Made by a program: the position numbers and the translations under genes. The notes below the pieces were generated by a model, which was not told where the DNA came from, searched no databases, and was given only the letters and a program-made list of their open reading frames with translations. 64,000 nucleotides of DNA. Source: Acidimicrobiia bacterium (GTDB lineage Bacteria > Actinomycetota > Acidimicrobiia > Acidimicrobiales > JANYDT01). The stretch covers positions 5,689 to 69,688 of the forward strand of contig JAYSSR010000038.1 of the NCBI GenBank assembly GCA_043720395.1, in the 5' to 3' direction. Within the stretch, counting starts at the first letter, position 1, and the number at the start of each line of letters is the position of its first letter. Shown one piece after another: positions 18,198 to 54,074 of the stretch.

Positions 18198-18274
18198 CGG
18201 GATGTAGCGCAGCTTGGTAGCGCGCCACGTTCGGGACGTGGAGGCCGGGGGTTCAAGTCCCCCCATCCCGACCA
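18198..18274 (+). tRNA. tRNA-Pro (anticodon CGG), CCA encoded
   Basis: Hand-folded cloverleaf. Acceptor CGGGATG/CATCCCG, D-stem GCGC/GCGC, anticodon stem CCACG/CGTGG with loop TTCGGGA, T-arm GGGGG-TTCAAGT-CCCCC, discriminator A, then CCA. Confidence 0.9.
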
Positions 18275-47105: not shown

Positions 47106-50100
47106 CTACGTGCGCTTAGTTCGTCGCTGTAGTTCGTTCGACTCAATGTGAGATTCAAGCAACTCAGCAAGCTGAGGAAGGTTTTTCGGTGCGATCATCG
47201 AAAAGTGGTCGCCCGGAGCGTCCCGAACCTCGAACGTGCCAACGATGTTGGCCGCAAGGCCGTATCCCTCCGGGTACGCCGGCCATTCGGTAGCTGCACG
47301 TGCGAGCAAGACATTCACCCTGTAGATGCCCATTTCGTGAAGGTCGTACGCACGCTTGAAGTCGAGCTCCGCTGCGACTTCCGCCGTTGCATCATGGAGT
47401 TCATCGGCAGGCACCCCCGACTGCCGCGAAAACCTGCGGTCCAACACCCCTCGTGCCCATGGCATCACTGCGACCGGACCTCGTCTCCACAGGTTCCGGG
47501 CCACATTACGCAACTTGGCACCGATCGGCGGATTGAACCCGCGTGGAGGCACGGTGTCGAGGAGGATAACCGAGACAACATCGCGAGCGCGTTTGCGGAG
47601 TTCCTCAGCCATTTCGAGAGCGATGACGCCGCCACCGGAATATCCAGCAAGGAAGAACGGTCCCTCCGGCTGAACTTCCATCAATCGGGACGCGTACCGT
47701 TGTGCCATAGCGGAAATGCTTGCGTCGGCAAACCCACCGATAACCCAATTCGCCTGATAGCCGTACACGCTTCGATCGCCCCGCAAGGCGCGGGCAAGGA
47801 GCCGGAGCCCGACGAGATTGCCTCCTGCGCCGTGCACCATGTGCAGTGGAGTGGTCGTCGAATTCCGTCCCTCACGCAGCGTGATTGCAACCGACAGGTC
47901 CAGTGCCCGTTCCGGGGAGCGAAGAACGGCGAATGCGTTCGGGCTTGGGGCGATCACCAGCATCGGAAGCGAGGCAGTGCCTCCCAGCTCCCGACGGATG
48001 CGCGCCAACAGCCGTAAGCCCAGCAGTGAGTGGCCCCCGGCTTGGAAGAAGTCCGTATTCTCATCGGCAGCGGGGTCCCCGAGGACGTCGCGCCACAGCA
48101 GCGTAAGTCGCTCAAGGTCTGGCGCGCCGGTTGTCTCTGGCGATGTCGTGTTGACGAGGTGCCCTCCGTGTTCGACGGCACCCGATCTGGCCACGTCCGC
48201 TCGGCCAAGCACGGATTCGGCCCCAGCATGTGTGGACGCAGACTCCGGCTCACCAATAGTCACCAGGATCGCGTCGAAGCCGCTCGTCGAGGCGTGAACC
48301 AGCGCGCTACGAGCACGACTGGCCGTCATGGCGAGCGGTGCCGCCGCCGGGCTTGTCCATACGTCGCGAACTCGCCTCAGTTCACATCCCCTGAATACGG
48401 CGATCACCCCGTCGGCGTCGACTAGTCGAAGGTCGAAACAAACGAGGTCTGTGGTCATTTCACGCCGTCGGATCACAACATCGAACGCACCCTCGACGGG
48501 GCGGAACACCTCGACCGACGCAAACTGGGCCGGAACCCAAAATCCGACGGCAGCGCCTACGGAACCTTCCAGCCCAAGAGCGAGTGCCAAATCAAGGGCC
48601 GCCGGGTGCACGATCCACGACGAGTGCTCCGCGGCATACGACGCAAGAACAACTCGACCGAAGTCACGGTCCGACGAGCCTTGGACGTTCGCATTCCAGT
48701 GAGGCCCGACTACGAGCGAGCGGGTTTGATTTCTGAACACGTCAACGACTTCGAAGTCCGACGCAGCCCGAATCTCCGAGCCGTCGTAGGAATCGCCGAG
48801 GTCGTCGGTCGGCGGTGCGGCCACAATCGCCTGACTGTGCAGCGTCCACGTGTCGCCACCGGCCGGACGCCCCTCAACCCGCACAGCGCGGATGTCGCGG
48901 TCTGGCGGATCGAGGACGGCCCGAACCTCGACGACGACGTCGTCGTCGCAGAGCAGCGGCTCGATGATCGTGACGTCGACGATGTGGCGCGACGCGGGGC
49001 CTTCGCCGAGCGCGGCGAGCATCAGTGCAATATGTGCGGTGGCAGGGAGGACGGCACGCTCCGCAATGCGATGCTCGTTCAAGATCCACGTCTCGGTAGG
49101 GAGCGCAGAACCCGAAAGGACGATGGACCCGTCGGCGAGGGCATCGCGAACGTTGAAGAACGGGTGCGAAATCGAAATCGAGCCATGGACCACAGGCGTG
49201 CTGGCCATGCCGCCATCGCAGAATCGTCCCCAAGCGATGGTCGCGATTCGCGACGACCCTCGGGCCCCTGCGAGCGCCTCGACAACCGCGTTAGCAGCGA
49301 TGTACGCAGCCTGGCCGGGGATGCCGAGCGTGGTGCTCGCCGAGCCGACGAGCTGCACCAACGTGTCCGGGCGACTCTCGGCGTACCCGACCAATCGTTC
49401 AGCGATCATGAGCTTCGCCGCCAGCACCGCCTCCACGTCGTCCTCGGTCAACTGAGCGAGGAGACGGTCATGAAGCACACCGACCGCGTGGACGACCGAG
49501 TCGAACTCACTCGTTCGCAGCACCGCATCCAATTCCTTCGCGTTCGCCGCATCGACCACGCGGAGACTCACGGTGCGGCCAGCTTCGGTGGCCAACGCTT
49601 CGAGCTGAGCAAGGCGTCGAAGACGCTGGGATTGCGGTTCAGCGGGACCGTGTGTTGCAAGCCATGCCGATGCGTCAAGCGGAAGTTCAGACCTGGTCGT
49701 GACCGCAACGTCAGAACCGCTGGCGAGAAGCGCGGCTGCGTGAATGGCACCGACGTGTCCGAGGCCACCGAGCACAAGGCCGCATCGCCGCGACACGGCG
49801 TCGGCATGGTCCGTCAAGTCAGCACCTGTGACGGTGCGTGTCCAGGCCCGCCGCTTCGCTCCGTCGTGCCCCACGCCGACAACGCCGACGATTTCCGGGT
49901 CCATCAGAAGATCAACAATCGGTCCCAACACGCCCGACGGGGGTTCCGTGGAACCGCCGGACGCAGCACTGGAATGGCTCGCGAGGTCCACCACGATCCC
50001 GGTCAGTCCCGGGTATTCCTGTGCGAGGACGCCGGTAACACCCGCCGCGGCCGCCAGCCCTGGGTTGGCCGCCGGTGATGTTGGACTCGGCCATGCTCCG

Positions 50101-53100
50101 ACCGTCAGCACCGCTAAGCGGCCGACACCTGTTTCCGTCCGCTCGAAGAGCTGATTCGCTGCCTGTGCGCAGCGCCGGACCAATGAGGCGGCAACGTGTT
50201 CGAGTTGACGATCCCCTCCTCGCGTCACGACAAGTGCGCCAGTAAGTGGTGCGTTGGGCATCTCCTCGCCGGAGTTCACAAGGTGGATGCCGCGACGTTC
50301 CAGAGCGATGGAGAGCGCAGCGGCCACCCGGTCGTCGGGCTCTGCGTCGAGTAGCCAAACTCCGGCATACGCCGCTGACTCCTGGGACACCACCGGTGTC
50401 CAGGTCGGAACCGACACGACGACGTCGTGCGACTTCGAAGCTCCTGATTCAGGCGCGTCCGGACTGGCCGCAGTTGTCGAGACCCCTGCGCTCGGTCGCA
50501 CGGGATCGATCCAGGCGCGGTGCCGGTCGAGGCGCGGTACGGGAAGGCGTACTCGACGAACTGACGCGTCGACGAGGCGCCTCGCGTCAAGGTTTGCGCC
50601 ATGGCACCAAAGCTGTGTGACGCCATGCAGCAACCCGGTGACGGCGTCGGCATCGATGCCTCCGAGAATTGGAATCACCGTCGAACTTGGCTCCAGCGTT
50701 CGAACTGCTGCGGTGAGTACTTTCCCCGGAGCGACCTCGATTCCGAGGAACGGGCCGTCTGTTGCCGCGGCCCGTACCGCATCGCTGAAGCGGACGGTGC
50801 CGCGCAGCTCGTCAACCCAATACGCAGCGTCGAGCAGACCATCGAATCGGCCACCGGTCTGTGTCGAGTAGAACGCGATCTCCGGACGCCTCTGCGTCGT
50901 GTCGTTCATCCGCGCTCGGAACGCATCGAGATGGTCGTCGAGTCCACGGAAATGGGCGGCCGCCGCGAGGTTGACCCGTCGACAGTCGATGTCCGCACTG
51001 CGCAAAGCGCGTTCGAACAGGTCAATATCGGAAGTCGCGCCCGAATACACCAGTTCGTCGGGAGCATTCACCACCGCCAGATCGAGCGCGTCCGAAAGGT
51101 ACGGCCGCAGTTCGGACGCGGAAGCGAACACGGCGATCATTGCGGCCCCAGACGCTCCCGAACGCACTGGGTGGGCGGGCGGGGAATTCGCTGGGCGGGA
51201 CGCGTTCGCAATCGCCTCGGCACGCGCTCCGATGCCAATCACCGCGTCGCGCAGCGTTGCCGCGCCTGCCGCAACAGCCGCCGCATGCTCACCCATACTG
51301 TGACCGAGCACCCCCGCTGGGGCGATACCCCAATCCACGAGCTGCCGGCTCAAGGCATACTCCGCAACAAACAACGCCGGGAGCCCGACCGCGGGGTTGC
51401 GCAGACGCTCATCGATCGCGTCATCGCGTCCTGCGCGGAGCAGATCGCCAAGGTCCAGTCCCAGTTCCGTCCGTGCGGCGGCCACGGCTTGCTCGACCGC
51501 GTCATTGAACGTCCGAAAGCGGGGACCGGGCGCTGCGAGCAGTTCCGAGATCATCCCCGAACGCTGTGGTCCGGCACCTGGGAAAAGGAACAGCACCCTT
51601 GCCGATTGACTCGCCTGTACTGGCTTGACTGCATCGAGACCGCGCCGAAGATCGTCGGACGACGACCCGATCACGCCAGCTCGCCAGGCGTGCGCCGAGC
51701 GGCCGACGCCAAACGTCGCAGCTACCTGCGCGGGTGTCGGCAAGGTCGGAGCGGGTGTCGCGATTGTCCTGCCGACTCGTTCGGCAAGGTTGCAAAGACT
51801 CTCCGCCGTGGGCGCCGAGATCAACAACACCGACGGGTCCACGATGCCACCAACGACCGCCGCGGCGTCGCTGGAAGCCGCGGCCTCCACCAACTCCCCG
51901 CCCGCCCCCCCGGTCAACTCCCCGCCCGCCCCCCCGGTGAACTCTTCGACGATCACGTGCGCATTCGTCCCGCCGACACCGAGTGACGTCACACCTGCGC
52001 GCCGAGGTGCGGGTGCGTCCCATACCTCGAGTTCCGTGACGATCCGAAGTCCAGCACCAGCAAGGTCGATGAGGGGATTCGGTTCGGAGAAGTTGGCCTG
52101 TGGCGTGATCGTCCGTCGACGCAGCGATTCAACGATTTTGATGAGACCCGCGATCCCGGCGGCCGTGTCGGCGTGGCCGATGTTCGCCTTGATCGATCCA
52201 ACGGCGGGCAAGGTGGCAGTTGGCTCGGCATCGCGGCGATCTCGCGTTTTCAGCGCCTCAGACAGGGACGCGAACTCAATCGGATCACCAAGTGCAGTTC
52301 CGGTGCCGTGCGCCTCAATGAGCGAGACCGACGATGCTTCGATGCCTGCGACCGACAAGGCCTCACGGACGACGTCGACTTGGCCCTCCACGCTCGGCGC
52401 GTAGTAGCTCACCTTTCGCTGACCGTCGTTGTTGATGGCCGTACCTCGGAGCACGGCGAGGATCGGATCGTTTGCGGCAACGGCGTCCTCGTAGCGGCGC
52501 AGCGTCACCAGGCCCGCGCCGCTGCTGAGGACCGTTCCGGTCGCACGAGCATCGAAGGGTCGGCAGTATCCATCCGCGCTGAGCACTTCGCCAGCGACGT
52601 AGCGGTAACCAGCGCGCACGGGCACCTCGATCGTCGCCGCCCCCGCGAGAGCGAGGTCACACTCGAACGAGAGCAAGGCCTGTACGGCGAGGTGCACGGC
52701 CGTCAACGAGGTCGAGCATGCCGTCTGCACGCTCAGCGCGGGGCCTCGGAGATCGAGCCGATACGCGAGAGTGGTAGCGGCGAAATCTTTGTCGTTGCCA
52801 AGGTGTCGTAATCCAAACCAGCCGAGGTCTCGAATCAGGTCGGGGCGGCTCAGCAGGTTACGGGCGAGATAGGTGTTGTAACCGACGCCGACATAGACGC
52901 CGACACCGTCACGGAGGCGCTCCAGCTGGTGCGTGCCGGATTCGAGGGCTTCCCACGCGAGCTCCAGCAGGTGACGAATCTGCGGATCGATAAGGGCCGC
53001 CTCGCTCGGCGCAATCCCGAATCGGGCGGCGTCGAAGAGTTCGGGGTCGGCGAGATCGCCACCGCGTCGGATGCGCTCGGGGTCGGCCAAGTCGTGCGGC

Positions 53101-53288
53101 TCAAGGCCTGCCGCGATCAGATCGTCAACGGTCAGATCTGCGATCCCCTCACGGCCCGAGGCCAGAAGGTCCCACAGCTCGTCGGTATCGCGAGCACCAG
53201 CAAAGCGACCGGACATCCCGGTAATCGCGATTGCCCCCTCGAAGTGTTCAGAACCAGAGTTCACTGGGTGGGCGGGCGGCGAACTCAA
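47106..53288 (-). CDS. Type I polyketide synthase, single module KS-AT-KR-DH-ACP-TE (2060 aa)
   Basis: KS: IAITGMSGRFAG, VQTACSTSL, EAHGTGTALGDPIE, GSIKANIGHADTAAG. AT: FLFPGAGPQRSGM, GHSMGE. KR: LVLGGLGHVG, GQAAYIAANA. DH: HPFFNV, LNEHRIAERAVLP, VHPAALDLAL. ACP: FFQAGGHSLLGL. TE: MVHGAGGN, GYSGGG, PGDHFSM. The listed start is TTG at 53288; GTG at 53264 is an alternative. Confidence 0.9.
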   Translation of the reverse strand: MSSPPAHPVNSGSEHFEGAIAITGMSGRFAGARDTDELWDLLASGREGIADLTVDDLIAAGLEPHDLADPERIRRGGDLADPELFDAARFGIAPSEAALIDPQIRHLLELAWEALESGTHQLERLRDGVGVYVGVGYNTYLARNLLSRPDLIRDLGWFGLRHLGNDKDFAATTLAYRLDLRGPALSVQTACSTSLTAVHLAVQALLSFECDLALAGAATIEVPVRAGYRYVAGEVLSADGYCRPFDARATGTVLSSGAGLVTLRRYEDAVAANDPILAVLRGTAINNDGQRKVSYYAPSVEGQVDVVREALSVAGIEASSVSLIEAHGTGTALGDPIEFASLSEALKTRDRRDAEPTATLPAVGSIKANIGHADTAAGIAGLIKIVESLRRRTITPQANFSEPNPLIDLAGAGLRIVTELEVWDAPAPRRAGVTSLGVGGTNAHVIVEEFTGGAGGELTGGAGGELVEAAASSDAAAVVGGIVDPSVLLISAPTAESLCNLAERVGRTIATPAPTLPTPAQVAATFGVGRSAHAWRAGVIGSSSDDLRRGLDAVKPVQASQSARVLFLFPGAGPQRSGMISELLAAPGPRFRTFNDAVEQAVAAARTELGLDLGDLLRAGRDDAIDERLRNPAVGLPALFVAEYALSRQLVDWGIAPAGVLGHSMGEHAAAVAAGAATLRDAVIGIGARAEAIANASRPANSPPAHPVRSGASGAAMIAVFASASELRPYLSDALDLAVVNAPDELVYSGATSDIDLFERALRSADIDCRRVNLAAAAHFRGLDDHLDAFRARMNDTTQRRPEIAFYSTQTGGRFDGLLDAAYWVDELRGTVRFSDAVRAAATDGPFLGIEVAPGKVLTAAVRTLEPSSTVIPILGGIDADAVTGLLHGVTQLWCHGANLDARRLVDASVRRVRLPVPRLDRHRAWIDPVRPSAGVSTTAASPDAPESGASKSHDVVVSVPTWTPVVSQESAAYAGVWLLDAEPDDRVAAALSIALERRGIHLVNSGEEMPNAPLTGALVVTRGGDRQLEHVAASLVRRCAQAANQLFERTETGVGRLAVLTVGAWPSPTSPAANPGLAAAAGVTGVLAQEYPGLTGIVVDLASHSSAASGGSTEPPSGVLGPIVDLLMDPEIVGVVGVGHDGAKRRAWTRTVTGADLTDHADAVSRRCGLVLGGLGHVGAIHAAALLASGSDVAVTTRSELPLDASAWLATHGPAEPQSQRLRRLAQLEALATEAGRTVSLRVVDAANAKELDAVLRTSEFDSVVHAVGVLHDRLLAQLTEDDVEAVLAAKLMIAERLVGYAESRPDTLVQLVGSASTTLGIPGQAAYIAANAVVEALAGARGSSRIATIAWGRFCDGGMASTPVVHGSISISHPFFNVRDALADGSIVLSGSALPTETWILNEHRIAERAVLPATAHIALMLAALGEGPASRHIVDVTIIEPLLCDDDVVVEVRAVLDPPDRDIRAVRVEGRPAGGDTWTLHSQAIVAAPPTDDLGDSYDGSEIRAASDFEVVDVFRNQTRSLVVGPHWNANVQGSSDRDFGRVVLASYAAEHSSWIVHPAALDLALALGLEGSVGAAVGFWVPAQFASVEVFRPVEGAFDVVIRRREMTTDLVCFDLRLVDADGVIAVFRGCELRRVRDVWTSPAAAPLAMTASRARSALVHASTSGFDAILVTIGEPESASTHAGAESVLGRADVARSGAVEHGGHLVNTTSPETTGAPDLERLTLLWRDVLGDPAADENTDFFQAGGHSLLGLRLLARIRRELGGTASLPMLVIAPSPNAFAVLRSPERALDLSVAITLREGRNSTTTPLHMVHGAGGNLVGLRLLARALRGDRSVYGYQANWVIGGFADASISAMAQRYASRLMEVQPEGPFFLAGYSGGGVIALEMAEELRKRARDVVSVILLDTVPPRGFNPPIGAKLRNVARNLWRRGPVAVMPWARGVLDRRFSRQSGVPADELHDATAEVAAELDFKRAYDLHEMGIYRVNVLLARAATEWPAYPEGYGLAANIVGTFEVRDAPGDHFSMIAPKNLPQLAELLESHIESNELQRRTKRT
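47154..47861 (-). other. PKS thioesterase domain (approximate)
   Basis: aa ~1810-2045. GYSGGG (GxSxG), LLDT, GDHFSM. Confidence 0.75.
47904..48125 (-). other. PKS acyl carrier protein domain (approximate)
   Basis: aa ~1722-1795. GGHSLLGLRLLARI phosphopantetheine-attachment Ser motif. Confidence 0.8.
48369..49166 (-). other. PKS hot-dog (PS-DH-like) domain located after the KR (approximate)
   Basis: aa ~1375-1640. HPFFNV, HxxxExxxxP (LNEHRIAERAVLP), HPAALDLAL. Confidence 0.6.
49224..50411 (-). other. PKS ketoreductase domain including structural subdomain (approximate)
   Basis: aa ~960-1355. RLAVLTVGAWP...GLTGIVVDL (psi-KR-like), GGLGHVG Rossmann motif, and Tyr in GQAAYIAANA. Confidence 0.7.
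50709..51599 (-). other. PKS acyltransferase domain (approximate)
   Basis: aa ~564-860. GHSMGE nucleophile and a downstream AAAHF region. Interrupted by a repeat-derived insertion at aa 698-716. Confidence 0.75.
51165..51190 (+). repeat. G-tract repeat copy A (CACTGGGTGGGCGGGCGGGGAATTCG) inside the AT-coding region
   Basis: Seen directly. On the coding (minus) strand it encodes NSPPAHPVRS. Confidence 0.9.
51891..51938 (-). repeat. Two tandem inverted-orientation copies of the 24-nt unit (plus-strand CAACTCCCCGCCCGCCCCCCCGGT x2) in the KS-AT linker coding region
   Basis: Exact 24-nt tandem duplication. The reverse complement ACCGGGGGGGCGGGCGGGGAGTTG matches 20/24 positions of copy A. Encodes TGGAGGEL twice. 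Confidence 0.9.
51948..53237 (-). other. PKS ketosynthase domain (approximate)
   Basis: aa ~18-447. Active-site Cys in TACSTS, His in EAHGTG and IGHADTA. Confidence 0.8.
53262..53287 (+). repeat. G-tract repeat copy B (CACTGGGTGGGCGGGCGGCGAACTCA) spanning the PKS start region
   Basis: Seen directly. On the minus strand it encodes SSPPAHPVN at PKS residues 2-10. Confidence 0.9.
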
Positions 53289-53297
53289 AATGCCTGA

Positions 53298-53867
53298 TCA
53301 GCTCGTTCGGAAGTTTTCAAAATAACGACTCGGAGTCGGTCCTCGCTGGCCCTGATACTTGGAGCCCAGAGCAGACGAGCCGTACGGGTTATCAGCAGGA
53401 GATGTCATTCGAAGAAAGCTGATCTGGCCAATTTTCATACCCGGGTACAACGTGATCGGCAGGGTGGCCGCATTGCTCAATTCCAGCGTGATGTGCCCAT
53501 CAAAGCCTGGATCGATGAAGCCTGCCGTGGAATGAATCACGAGACCTAATCGTCCAAGGCTCGATTTGCCCTCGATCCGGGCCACAAGGTCGGCCGGCAC
53601 GGCAATCCTCTCAGCGGTCGCGCCCAGTACGAACTCACCGGGGTGGAGAATGAACACGTCGTCCTCACCGATCTCGATGAGTTCAGTGAGATCTTCCTGA
53701 TTCTCTTTGACGTCGATAACGGCAGTCGTGTGATTGCGAAACACGCGAAAATATCGATCGACTCGAAGGTCGATCGACGATGGCTGGATGTTCGCCGGTT
53801 CAAACGGGTCAACCACAATTCGCCCCGCGGCAATCTCTTCGCGAAGCGTCCGGTCGGAGAGGATCAT
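53298..53867 (-). CDS. dcd: dCTP deaminase (dCTP deaminase/dUTPase family)
   Basis: [12 protein letters not shown]...[10 protein letters not shown]...[31 protein letters not shown] are classic Dcd motifs. Confidence 0.9.
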
Positions 53868-53931
53868 GGGGGGAGAGTCCAGAGTTGGCGGACCAGACGT
53901 TCAGGCCACGGGACCACGCAGCGTAGTAGGT

Positions 53932-54003
53932 CACTGGGTGGGTGGGCGGGAAACTCACTGGGTGGGCGGGCGGGAAACTCACTGGGTGGGTGGCGGGGAG
54001 CCC
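53932..54003 (+). repeat. 3 x 24-nt tandem G-tract repeats (CACTGGGTGGGYGGGCGGGAAACT)
   Basis: Copies start at 53932, 53956 and 53980; the third is degenerate (CACTGGGTGGGTGGCGGGGAGCC). Each unit contains GGGTGGGCGGGCGGG, four G3 tracts with 1-nt loops. Intergenic, upstream of dcd. Confidence 0.9.
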
Positions 54004-54016
54004 GTCGAAGCGCCAC

Positions 54017-54074
54017 GGCTCGCACACCCGACGAAGTCGCGGCGGCTCGCACACCCGACGAAGTCGCGGCGGCT
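54017..54074 (+). repeat. 2 x 27-nt perfect tandem repeat (GGCTCGCACACCCGACGAAGTCGCGGC) plus a partial third unit
   Basis: Copies at 54017-54043 and 54044-54070, then GGCT. Abuts and overlaps the stop codon of the GH16 gene at 54073. Confidence 0.9.

Follow-up and report, generated by a model that had tools for sequence, protein, structure and literature searches.

A 24-nt G-quadruplex-type repeat unit lies in frame within the acyltransferase domain of a type I polyketide synthase gene in an Acidimicrobiia bacterium

Introduction

How does a short repeat unit that is found between genes come to lie in frame inside the acyltransferase (AT) domain of a polyketide synthase (PKS), and what does it do to the enzyme? 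The question is raised by a stretch of 64,000 nt from an Acidimicrobiia bacterium (GenBank assembly GCA_043720395.1, contig JAYSSR010000038.1, positions 5,689 to 69,688), which is called the window here. It carries on the minus strand an intact type I PKS open reading frame (ORF) of 2060 aa from TTG (47106..53288) with the Pfam domains KS (ketosynthase), AT, KR, DH_N, ACP and TE. The dCTP deaminase gene dcd (minus strand, 53298..53867) lies immediately upstream of the PKS gene in all lineages compared. The initial annotation of this DNA held that positions 51165-51190, in the AT domain, are essentially identical to intergenic repeat units of the same region and that the insertion might tune or cripple the AT.

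Colonisation of ORFs by small repeats has precedents. Rickettsia palindromic elements (RPEs) are located between genes and also inside ORFs in frame, where the encoded peptide is compatible with the fold of the host protein and gene function is kept (PMC10969869). Some ERIC elements and miniature inverted-repeat transposable elements are likewise known to enter ORFs in frame (PMC10969869).

Results

The plus strand at 51165-51190 reads CACTGGGTGGGCGGGCGGGGAATTCG. The identity with other units proved to be real: this 26-mer, with up to 3 mismatches, has two further copies in the window, at 53262-53287 and 53956-53981, and shuffled sequences gave an expectation of 0.00. On its G-rich strand the 24-nt unit is composed of an 8-nt spacer of the GAGTTCAC / AAACTCAC type and four G3 tracts with single-base gaps. 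The spacer variants are GAGTTCAC, GAGTTGAC, AAACTCAC or GAATTCGC, and each is followed by TGGGTGGGCGGGCGGG(G). The G core, GGGTGGGCGGGCGGGG and its variants, occurs at five positions and has at least 4 runs of at least 3 G with loops of 1-7 nt, which is the definition of a G-quadruplex (G4) motif. Motifs of the form (G3N1)3G3 are among the most stable G4s. There are five short-loop G4 motifs in the window, every one of them a 24-nt unit, whereas 200 first-order Markov simulations of the window gave 0.34 such motifs on average and never more than 3. When up to 2 mismatches were allowed, the 16-nt G core had 6 matches (0.18 expected), two of which are on the opposite strand at 51896-51935. Tandem Repeats Finder detected a 24-nt array of 2.8 copies at 53931-53997 and an inverted 24-nt array of 2.2 copies at 51891-51944. 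An independent repeat search recovered the same family and stretched the AT copy to 44 nt (51161..51204, plus strand) with 84% identity to array copies 2-3.

The unit copies are located at four non-adjacent sites, in both orientations and all within 2.8 kb (51161-54002); none was found in the remaining 61 kb of the window. Site A (plus strand, 53931..54002) lies between genes, upstream of dcd, and holds 2.8-3 units in tandem; their G-rich strand is antisense to dcd and the PKS gene, the units being C-rich on the PKS sense strand. Site B (minus strand, 53259..53287) is one unit at the dcd/PKS junction, encoding SPPAHPVN as aa 3-10 provided that translation begins at the conserved TTG at 53288. 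Site C (minus strand, 51891..51938) consists of two inverted units in the KS-AT linker, which directly follow the conserved EEF end of the KS (GAAGAGTTC); here the G-rich strand is the sense strand and encodes TGGAGGEL TGGAGGEL (aa 451-466). Site D (minus strand, 51162..51185) is the unit in the AT domain and encodes SPPAHPVR, PKS aa 702-709. Thus, in addition to the AT copy known from the initial annotation, the unit lies in frame in the first PKS codons (B) and twice, inverted, in the KS-AT linker (C). With respect to the operon, the G-rich strand serves as template at sites A, B and D and as sense strand at site C. The three in-ORF sites are 24 or 48 nt in length, in frame and stop-free, and the SPPAHP peptide frame is common to sites B and D. 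A six-frame search of the window for unit-encoded peptides (SPPAHPV and GGAGGEL types, including PPAHP, GGAGGE and other frames) returned only the known unit sites and chance P-rich matches. Terminal inverted repeats, a palindrome or a hairpin were not found in the 24-nt unit when its sequence was read directly. Inverted repeats of at least 12 nt, a length that a short intra-unit stem would escape, were listed solely between different unit copies.

In a protein search, the PKS matched its own protein (P0001), one orthologue with 73% identity (P0002) and other proteins with at most 41% identity over substantial coverage. A protein search with PKS aa 400-800 for closer fragments gave weak, distant matches only, and also missed the query's own protein. 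We therefore used dcd as the anchor for finding relatives, and its protein cluster led to L041, L042, L043 and L045. L041 is the same as L042 over the compared regions, L045 belongs to the L001 lineage, and L001 is the locus of P0002, in which the dcd-PKS synteny is as in the window. The nucleotide identities of dcd group the window with L043 (93.5%) and L041 with L001 (89%), with about 87% between the pairs. The orthologous PKS genes of L001 and L041 are 77-79% identical to that of the window; the L041 sequence reaches PKS aa 1113, and that of L043 ends at PKS aa 49, short of sites C and D. In addition, the Logan assembly of SRR23617227 (L040) is identical (100%) to window positions 54045-37106 over 16,940 nt, a stretch that takes in sites B, C and D and most of site A.

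At site D, both L001 and L041 lack exactly 24 nt, or the 8 aa SPPAHPVR, as a clean gap in the protein and DNA alignments. At site B, 8 aa are missing in L001. Over the whole 2060-aa alignment of the window and L001 PKS proteins there are just three indels of more than 3 aa, all at unit sites, and on either side of every in-gene unit the sequence runs collinear with that of the orthologues. The copy number at every site varies among close relatives. Site A has 2.8 copies in the window, none in L043 and L041 and 1 in L001; site B has 1 copy in the window and none in L043, L041 and L001. Site C has 2.2 copies in the window, none in L041 and 1-2 in L001, and site D has 1 copy in the window and none in L041 and L001. 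L042 resembles L041 at sites A and B (no copy), and L045 resembles L001 (1 copy at A, none at B). The L001 units at sites A and C are one 20-21-nt unit each, with a degenerate neighbour at C. The number of G3 tracts is uniform within a genome, namely 4 in the window units and 3 in the L001 units. Unit copies were not found in the 16.7 kb of L001 beyond its dcd-PKS sites, nor elsewhere in the L041-L045 sequences.

SPPAHPVR is located where the initial annotation had placed it: the PKS reads GHSMGE (aa 662-667), later IANASRPANSPPAHPVRSGASGAAMIAVFAS, and the insert begins 35 residues past GHSMGE and just precedes the strand AAMIAVFAS. From GHS to the end of that strand, 97 of 100 other ATs have 46-48 aa, whereas P0002 has 54 aa and the PKS of the window 62 aa. 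The SPPAHPVR-bearing segment is thus 14-16 aa longer than in those 97, and solved AT structures have a gap of 13-17 aa opposite the insert. Orthologues that lack the repeat do not carry a homologous loop of the same length, since L001 and L041 are without these 8 residues, and the claim that 24 nt, or 8 codons, were added with the frame kept is borne out. Site D is very probably a real in-frame indel of a repeat unit, and probably an insertion in the window lineage.

The family was active recently. The closest relative, L043, is unit-free at the dcd/PKS junction and upstream of dcd, which dates the gain or expansion of sites A and B to the time after a recent split. Site D and these newly acquired copies agree at 23 of 26 positions despite a synonymous divergence (dS) between the window and L001 of about 1, which suggests recent insertion or continued homogenisation. 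A search for a unit remnant in the AT-loop DNA of L001 was not significant (score 16, reached by 12.5% of control windows).

The junctions hold short sequences similar to the spacer of the unit. At site B, the unit-free L043 reads TTGAGTTC followed directly by TAATTC, and the window reads TTGAGTTC, the inserted GCCGCCCGCCCACCCAGTGAACTC and TGGTTC. At site C, the sequence GAAGAGTT(C/T), which corresponds to the EEF codons, is directly before the unit position in every lineage. A pre-existing GAGTTC is therefore present exactly at the insertion point at site B (in L043) and site C (in all lineages). The flanks of sites A and D have weaker spacer-like sequences (GTAGGTC; GAACGYRC and GCGTTCGC), read from the alignments by eye. 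Because GAGTTC/GAACTC occurs at about 1.06 per kb, two exact adjacencies in four sites are unlikely to arise by chance (about 2e-5 as a rough estimate). At the same KS-AT linker position, the unit-free L041 carries (TTCGGA)x2, encoding SDSDS (L041:4740-4790). This is a different small repeat, so the linker seems prone in general to indels driven by repeats.

The AT domain (minus strand, 50691..51590, aa 567-866) has its hallmarks intact: GHSMG (51291-51305, aa 662-666), Arg689 in GARAEAI, and the His in AAAH from aa 776. It matches Pfam Acyl_transf_1 with 3.7e-37, and GHSxG, an Arg about 25 aa downstream, the His motif and the AT fold, by which a functional type I PKS AT is recognised, were all found in the sequence or in the model. 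An AlphaFold2 model of PKS aa 430-901 was made from a 20-sequence alignment and had a mean pLDDT of 76, with 85-97 in the AT core and about 32 in the TGGAGGEL linker repeats. The modelled fold resembles AT crystal structures (Foldseek TM 0.76/0.87 to 5YDA). The helix LRDAVIGIGARAEAIANAS, which bears the conserved Arg689, is followed by a 17-residue coil, RPANSPPAHPVRSGASG, and then by the strand AAMIAV. This coil corresponds to model residues 269-285, and the pLDDT is below 50 at 277-283 (HPVRSGA). The insert is predicted to be a disordered coil, with the Arg-bearing helix before it and the first strand of the small AT subdomain after it. Its low confidence fits a surface loop, as considered in the initial annotation, and, as judged from the disorder, a position on the protein surface away from the catalytic core.

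The pairwise ratio of non-synonymous to synonymous substitution (dN/dS) against L001 is 0.16 for the whole gene and 0.11 for the AT. On the window branch, the dN/dS of the AT was estimated at about 0.08 by three-taxon parsimony (51 synonymous and 11 non-synonymous changes), no higher than on the L001 branch. By these substitution counts, the PKS is under purifying selection. The proposal that the insertion cripples the AT is not supported by these data: with intact catalytic motifs and an AT dN/dS of about 0.08-0.11, the insert looks tolerated and there is no sign of decay. Its effect on the AT is probably neutral, as far as sequence comparison can tell.

Discussion

It is plausible that new copies of the unit arise by short-range templated copying from a neighbouring copy. 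The copying would occur through template switching in replication or repair, or through gene conversion, and would be primed where a pre-existing spacer-like hexamer, GAGTTC/GAACTC, shares microhomology with the spacer of the unit. Stalling of the fork at the G4 tracts would plausibly promote it. Selection would then retain only those copies that lengthen the reading frame by 8 codons free of stops and that fall where the structure can take them, namely at the N-terminus, in the KS-AT linker and in the loop between the large AT subdomain and the first strand of the small one. For the AT, the outcome would be an 8-aa extension of a disordered loop that is tolerated, neither inactivating nor clearly retuning the domain. 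The clustering of the copies in 2.8 kb, their two orientations, the quasi-palindromic spacer and the uniform tract number fit copying better than transposition, and the uniform number of tracts within each genome suggests ongoing copying or conversion. We consider it somewhat better than an even chance that microhomology-primed templated copying of a G4-prone minisatellite unit is the mechanism. The explanation as a whole, in which a locus-restricted 24-nt unit was inserted in frame in one lineage by local copying, is moderately probable.

Several points weigh against this explanation. Clear microhomology is seen at two junctions (B and C) and is weaker at the other two (A and D). Most GAGTTC/GAACTC sites in the gene are without a unit, so microhomology is at most permissive. 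The local confinement is read from 64 kb of the source genome, and a sparse genome-wide family is possible. The formation of G4 is predicted, with an energy model that covers RNA alone, and the enzymes that would carry out the copying are hypothetical. With L043 reaching no further than PKS aa 49, the AT indel is polarised by distant outgroups and by the fresh look of the copy. The AT loop of L001 and L041 is still 6-8 aa above the family norm, so that an older insertion with later loss of one unit is conceivable. Finally, the 44-nt similarity at site D fits an event more complex than the insertion of exactly 24 nt; about 1.4-1.8 units, encoding ASRPANSPPAHPVR, may have arrived together.

The unit could instead be a genome-wide mobile miniature element similar to RPEs, REPINs or SDRs, moved by a trans-acting protein, and the four local sites would then be the visible part of its distribution. 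In-frame intragenic insertion is a hallmark of RPEs (PMC10969869), the unit is found in both orientations at non-adjacent sites, and similar arrays of CACTG plus G4 tracts are present in unrelated metagenome contigs. However, the four sites lie in 2.8 kb, neither the other 61 kb of the window nor the remaining sequence of L001 and L041-L045 holds a further copy, and the unit has no terminal inverted repeats or palindrome. The exact 19-mer CACTGGGTGGGYGGGCGGG gave nine scattered single matches in 185,579 species genomes, among which the source genome is not included, and 29 matches in JGI metagenome contigs, none from this clade. A mobile element of this kind is therefore unlikely. The family is confined to a 2.8-kb neighbourhood of the available DNA, which local templated copying fits better.

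Another idea is that the copies are kept as G4 or protein-binding sites, or as complementary RNA, that regulate the dcd-PKS operon, the peptide being a by-product. Examples would be pausing at an RNA G4 between KS and AT, roadblocks by template-strand G4s, and long-range pairing of C-rich and G-rich mRNA segments. The array lies directly upstream of a highly conserved dcd leader, and G4 motifs are enriched near promoters and gene starts of bacteria with GC-rich genomes (PMC5801747; PMC12563890). Because the G-rich strand of site C is the sense strand, two RNA G4s are predicted in the mRNA between KS and AT; the RNA of the linker copies has -82 kcal/mol with the G4 model of ViennaRNA and -22 without G4. 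The inverted copies are up to 89% complementary; however, duplex energies between copies go just modestly beyond the background of GC-rich mRNA, and long-range RNA pairing was rejected as a candidate on this ground. A scan for sigma-70 promoters and terminators around the array found no promoter-like hexamers and nothing informative. Relatives with the same operon have 0 or 1 copy per site, so no site is required; a regulatory role is possible but not needed. As the reason why the copies are kept, regulation seems improbable.

It may also be considered that the ancestor had about two units in the AT loop, and that the L001/L041 lineage lost exactly one by slippage while the window retained both. 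A single deletion would account for both L001 and L041, as these two are sisters, and their loop is still longer than the family norm by 6-8 aa. In the window, the 44 nt of unit-like sequence correspond to about 15 aa, the full excess over other ATs. On the other hand, the loop DNA of L001 is not significantly unit-like (its score of 16 is reached by 12.5% of control windows), and the window copy is like the recently gained copies at 23 of 26 positions at a dS of about 1, so an old copy would need continuous homogenisation. Retention has only a small chance of being the right account, and an insertion in the window lineage is preferred. Coincidence or convergence of a Pro/Ala/Gly-rich loop in a genome of 64.5% GC, or an assembly artefact, is extremely improbable, since the many G/C runs of GC-rich coding DNA and the break of one assembly at the repeat array are set against 26-mer matches with 0.00 expected by chance, an exact 24-nt indel relative to two orthologues, one peptide frame at two sites, collinear flanks in the orthologues and a second, sequence-identical assembly.

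Among known systems, RPEs are an apt analogy for in-frame colonisation, as proposed in the initial annotation: the present unit is also both intergenic and within ORFs, in frame and stop-free. However, RPEs are about 100-150 bp, palindromic and present in dozens of copies across unrelated genes, whereas the unit here is 24 nt, non-palindromic, of G4 type and seen only within 2.8 kb of one operon. It does not belong to the RPEs on grounds of size and palindromy. The small dispersed repeats (SDRs) of cyanobacteria, reportedly described by Elhai et al. in 2008, are units of 21-27 nt that are said to behave as mobile. Like the present unit, they are reportedly very small, present or absent between close relatives, tandem as well as single, and sometimes inside conserved sequences; they are said to differ from it in phylum and sequence, in being genome-wide and in not being of G4 type. 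REP/REPIN sequences with their RAYT are short non-autonomous repeats (PMC3116915). They are likewise often in tandem or inverted pairs, with copies more alike within than between genomes, but they are hairpin-forming, extragenic and RAYT-dependent, whereas the unit here has no hairpin and enters ORFs.

Minisatellites, or variable-number tandem repeats (VNTRs), such as the mycobacterial MIRU-VNTR loci, share with the unit a period that is a multiple of 3, a copy at an intercistronic operon junction and a head-to-tail copy number that varies between relatives (0/1/2.8 at site A and 0/1-2/2.2 at site C). However, the single copies B and D lie 0.65-2.8 kb from the array, and C is inverted. Slippage in an array cannot create copies at a distance of 0.7-2.7 kb or inverted copies, so a pure VNTR definition fails on the dispersal of B, C and D. 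The Neisseria pilE-associated G4 (GGGTGGGTTGGGTGGGG) initiates gene conversion. The two cases share a closely similar short-loop G4 motif and its position just upstream of a gene subject to templated changes; here, in contrast, no silent donor cassettes or promoter of a small RNA are evident, and the G4 motif itself is copied. In-frame repeat colonisation of ORFs and VNTR-type change of copy number at sites A and C are already known behaviours. What is distinct here is the size of 24 nt, a G4 in place of a palindrome, the apparent spread over a kilobase range with spacer microhomology, and a PKS as the host gene.

This locus is a natural example of short repeats making in-frame indels in a large enzyme, in which relatives show the states with and without the unit. 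It suggests that G4-prone repeats may spread over kilobase distances with the aid of spacer microhomology. Two positions of the KS-AT didomain, right after the EEF end of the KS and in the hinge loop before the G-AM-AV strand, tolerate 8-16 extra residues, which is useful for PKS engineering and tagging. For annotators, gene starts and loop insertions near such arrays are unstable and call for caution. The finding alone leaves the understanding of PKSs or of mobile DNA unchanged.

A more speculative and rather doubtful idea is that the unit is a protein-independent, self-propagating G4 minisatellite, in which fork stalling at G4 would lead to template switches that paste a spacer plus G4 near GAGTTC-like microhomology in either orientation. 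If so, it would seed new 8-residue loops and linkers in the enzyme and possibly regulatory G4s in the mRNA and the template strand, and this would be a previously undescribed route from non-B DNA to coding indels in bacteria. Such a minisatellite may be related to the promoter-side CACTG plus G4 arrays of unrelated metagenomic contigs.

Additional observations

The PKS ORF starts 6-9 nt downstream of the dcd stop. Three gene callers disagree about the start within 53216-53300: TTG at 53288, GTG at 53264 (Logan) and ATG at 53216 (NCBI). The TTG, given by analogy with the JGI calls on the orthologues, is conserved in all lineages 6-9 nt past the dcd stop, and this position suggests translational coupling. 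A start at the ATG would remove part of the first KS strand, and the GTG start codon is supplied by the inserted unit of site B. The Pfam domain order of the PKS, with the KR (aa 1171-1352) before the DH N-terminal domain (aa 1375-1471), is unusual for a reducing type I PKS module. The neighbouring genes encode an O-antigen-ligase-like Wzy_C protein and glycosyltransferases, and this neighbourhood hints at a cell-envelope lipid product.

About 60-85 nt right upstream of the dcd start are near-invariant in four lineages, whereas dcd itself is 87-93% identical in DNA. This leader block is located at 53868-53925 (minus strand) of the window, L041:2782-2844, L043:590-650 and L001:9365-9427. Homology between lineages ends abruptly at its 5' edge (CCTACTACGCTG), exactly at the unit array. 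The block has a modest predicted stem, no variation for covariation and no Rfam match, and it may act as a conserved leader or as a regulatory RNA of dcd. Searches around the locus gave no Rfam family, and no tRNA lies near the array, the only tRNA of the window being at 18198-18274; a tRNA integration site or a known riboswitch at the array was rejected on this basis. Between the stop codon of a GH16 gene and the 24-nt array there is a second, unrelated tandem repeat of 27 nt, CCCGACGAAGTCGCGGCGGCTCGCACA, in 2.8 copies (54001-54074). It is missing from all relatives, and the Logan assembly breaks within it.

In the unrelated metagenome contigs mentioned above, the arrays are intergenic and consist of short CACTG/CAGT-type repeats joined to (G3N)4 tracts (L012:878-1296; L013 293-711, minus strand; L017:567-985; L021:4771-5189; L024 1-362, minus strand; and in L006, L007 and L038). 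Often an array is split into two divergent halves, and a -10-like box and a gene start follow each half. The 21-mer CTCACTGGGTGGGCGGGCGGG is common to L017 and the window unit. The arrays are possibly a wider or analogous class of promoter-proximal G4 repeat. In two other unrelated contigs, L020 (1030-1408, minus strand) and L035 (1927-2345, minus strand), a conserved arrangement is shared, in which a GGGGG..CCCCC hairpin is followed by ...AACCCCACTGGGTGGGYGGGCGGGAA.GA. In L035 this arrangement lies upstream of a gene whose N-terminus, by eye, resembles MetK, and it may be an undescribed leader element.

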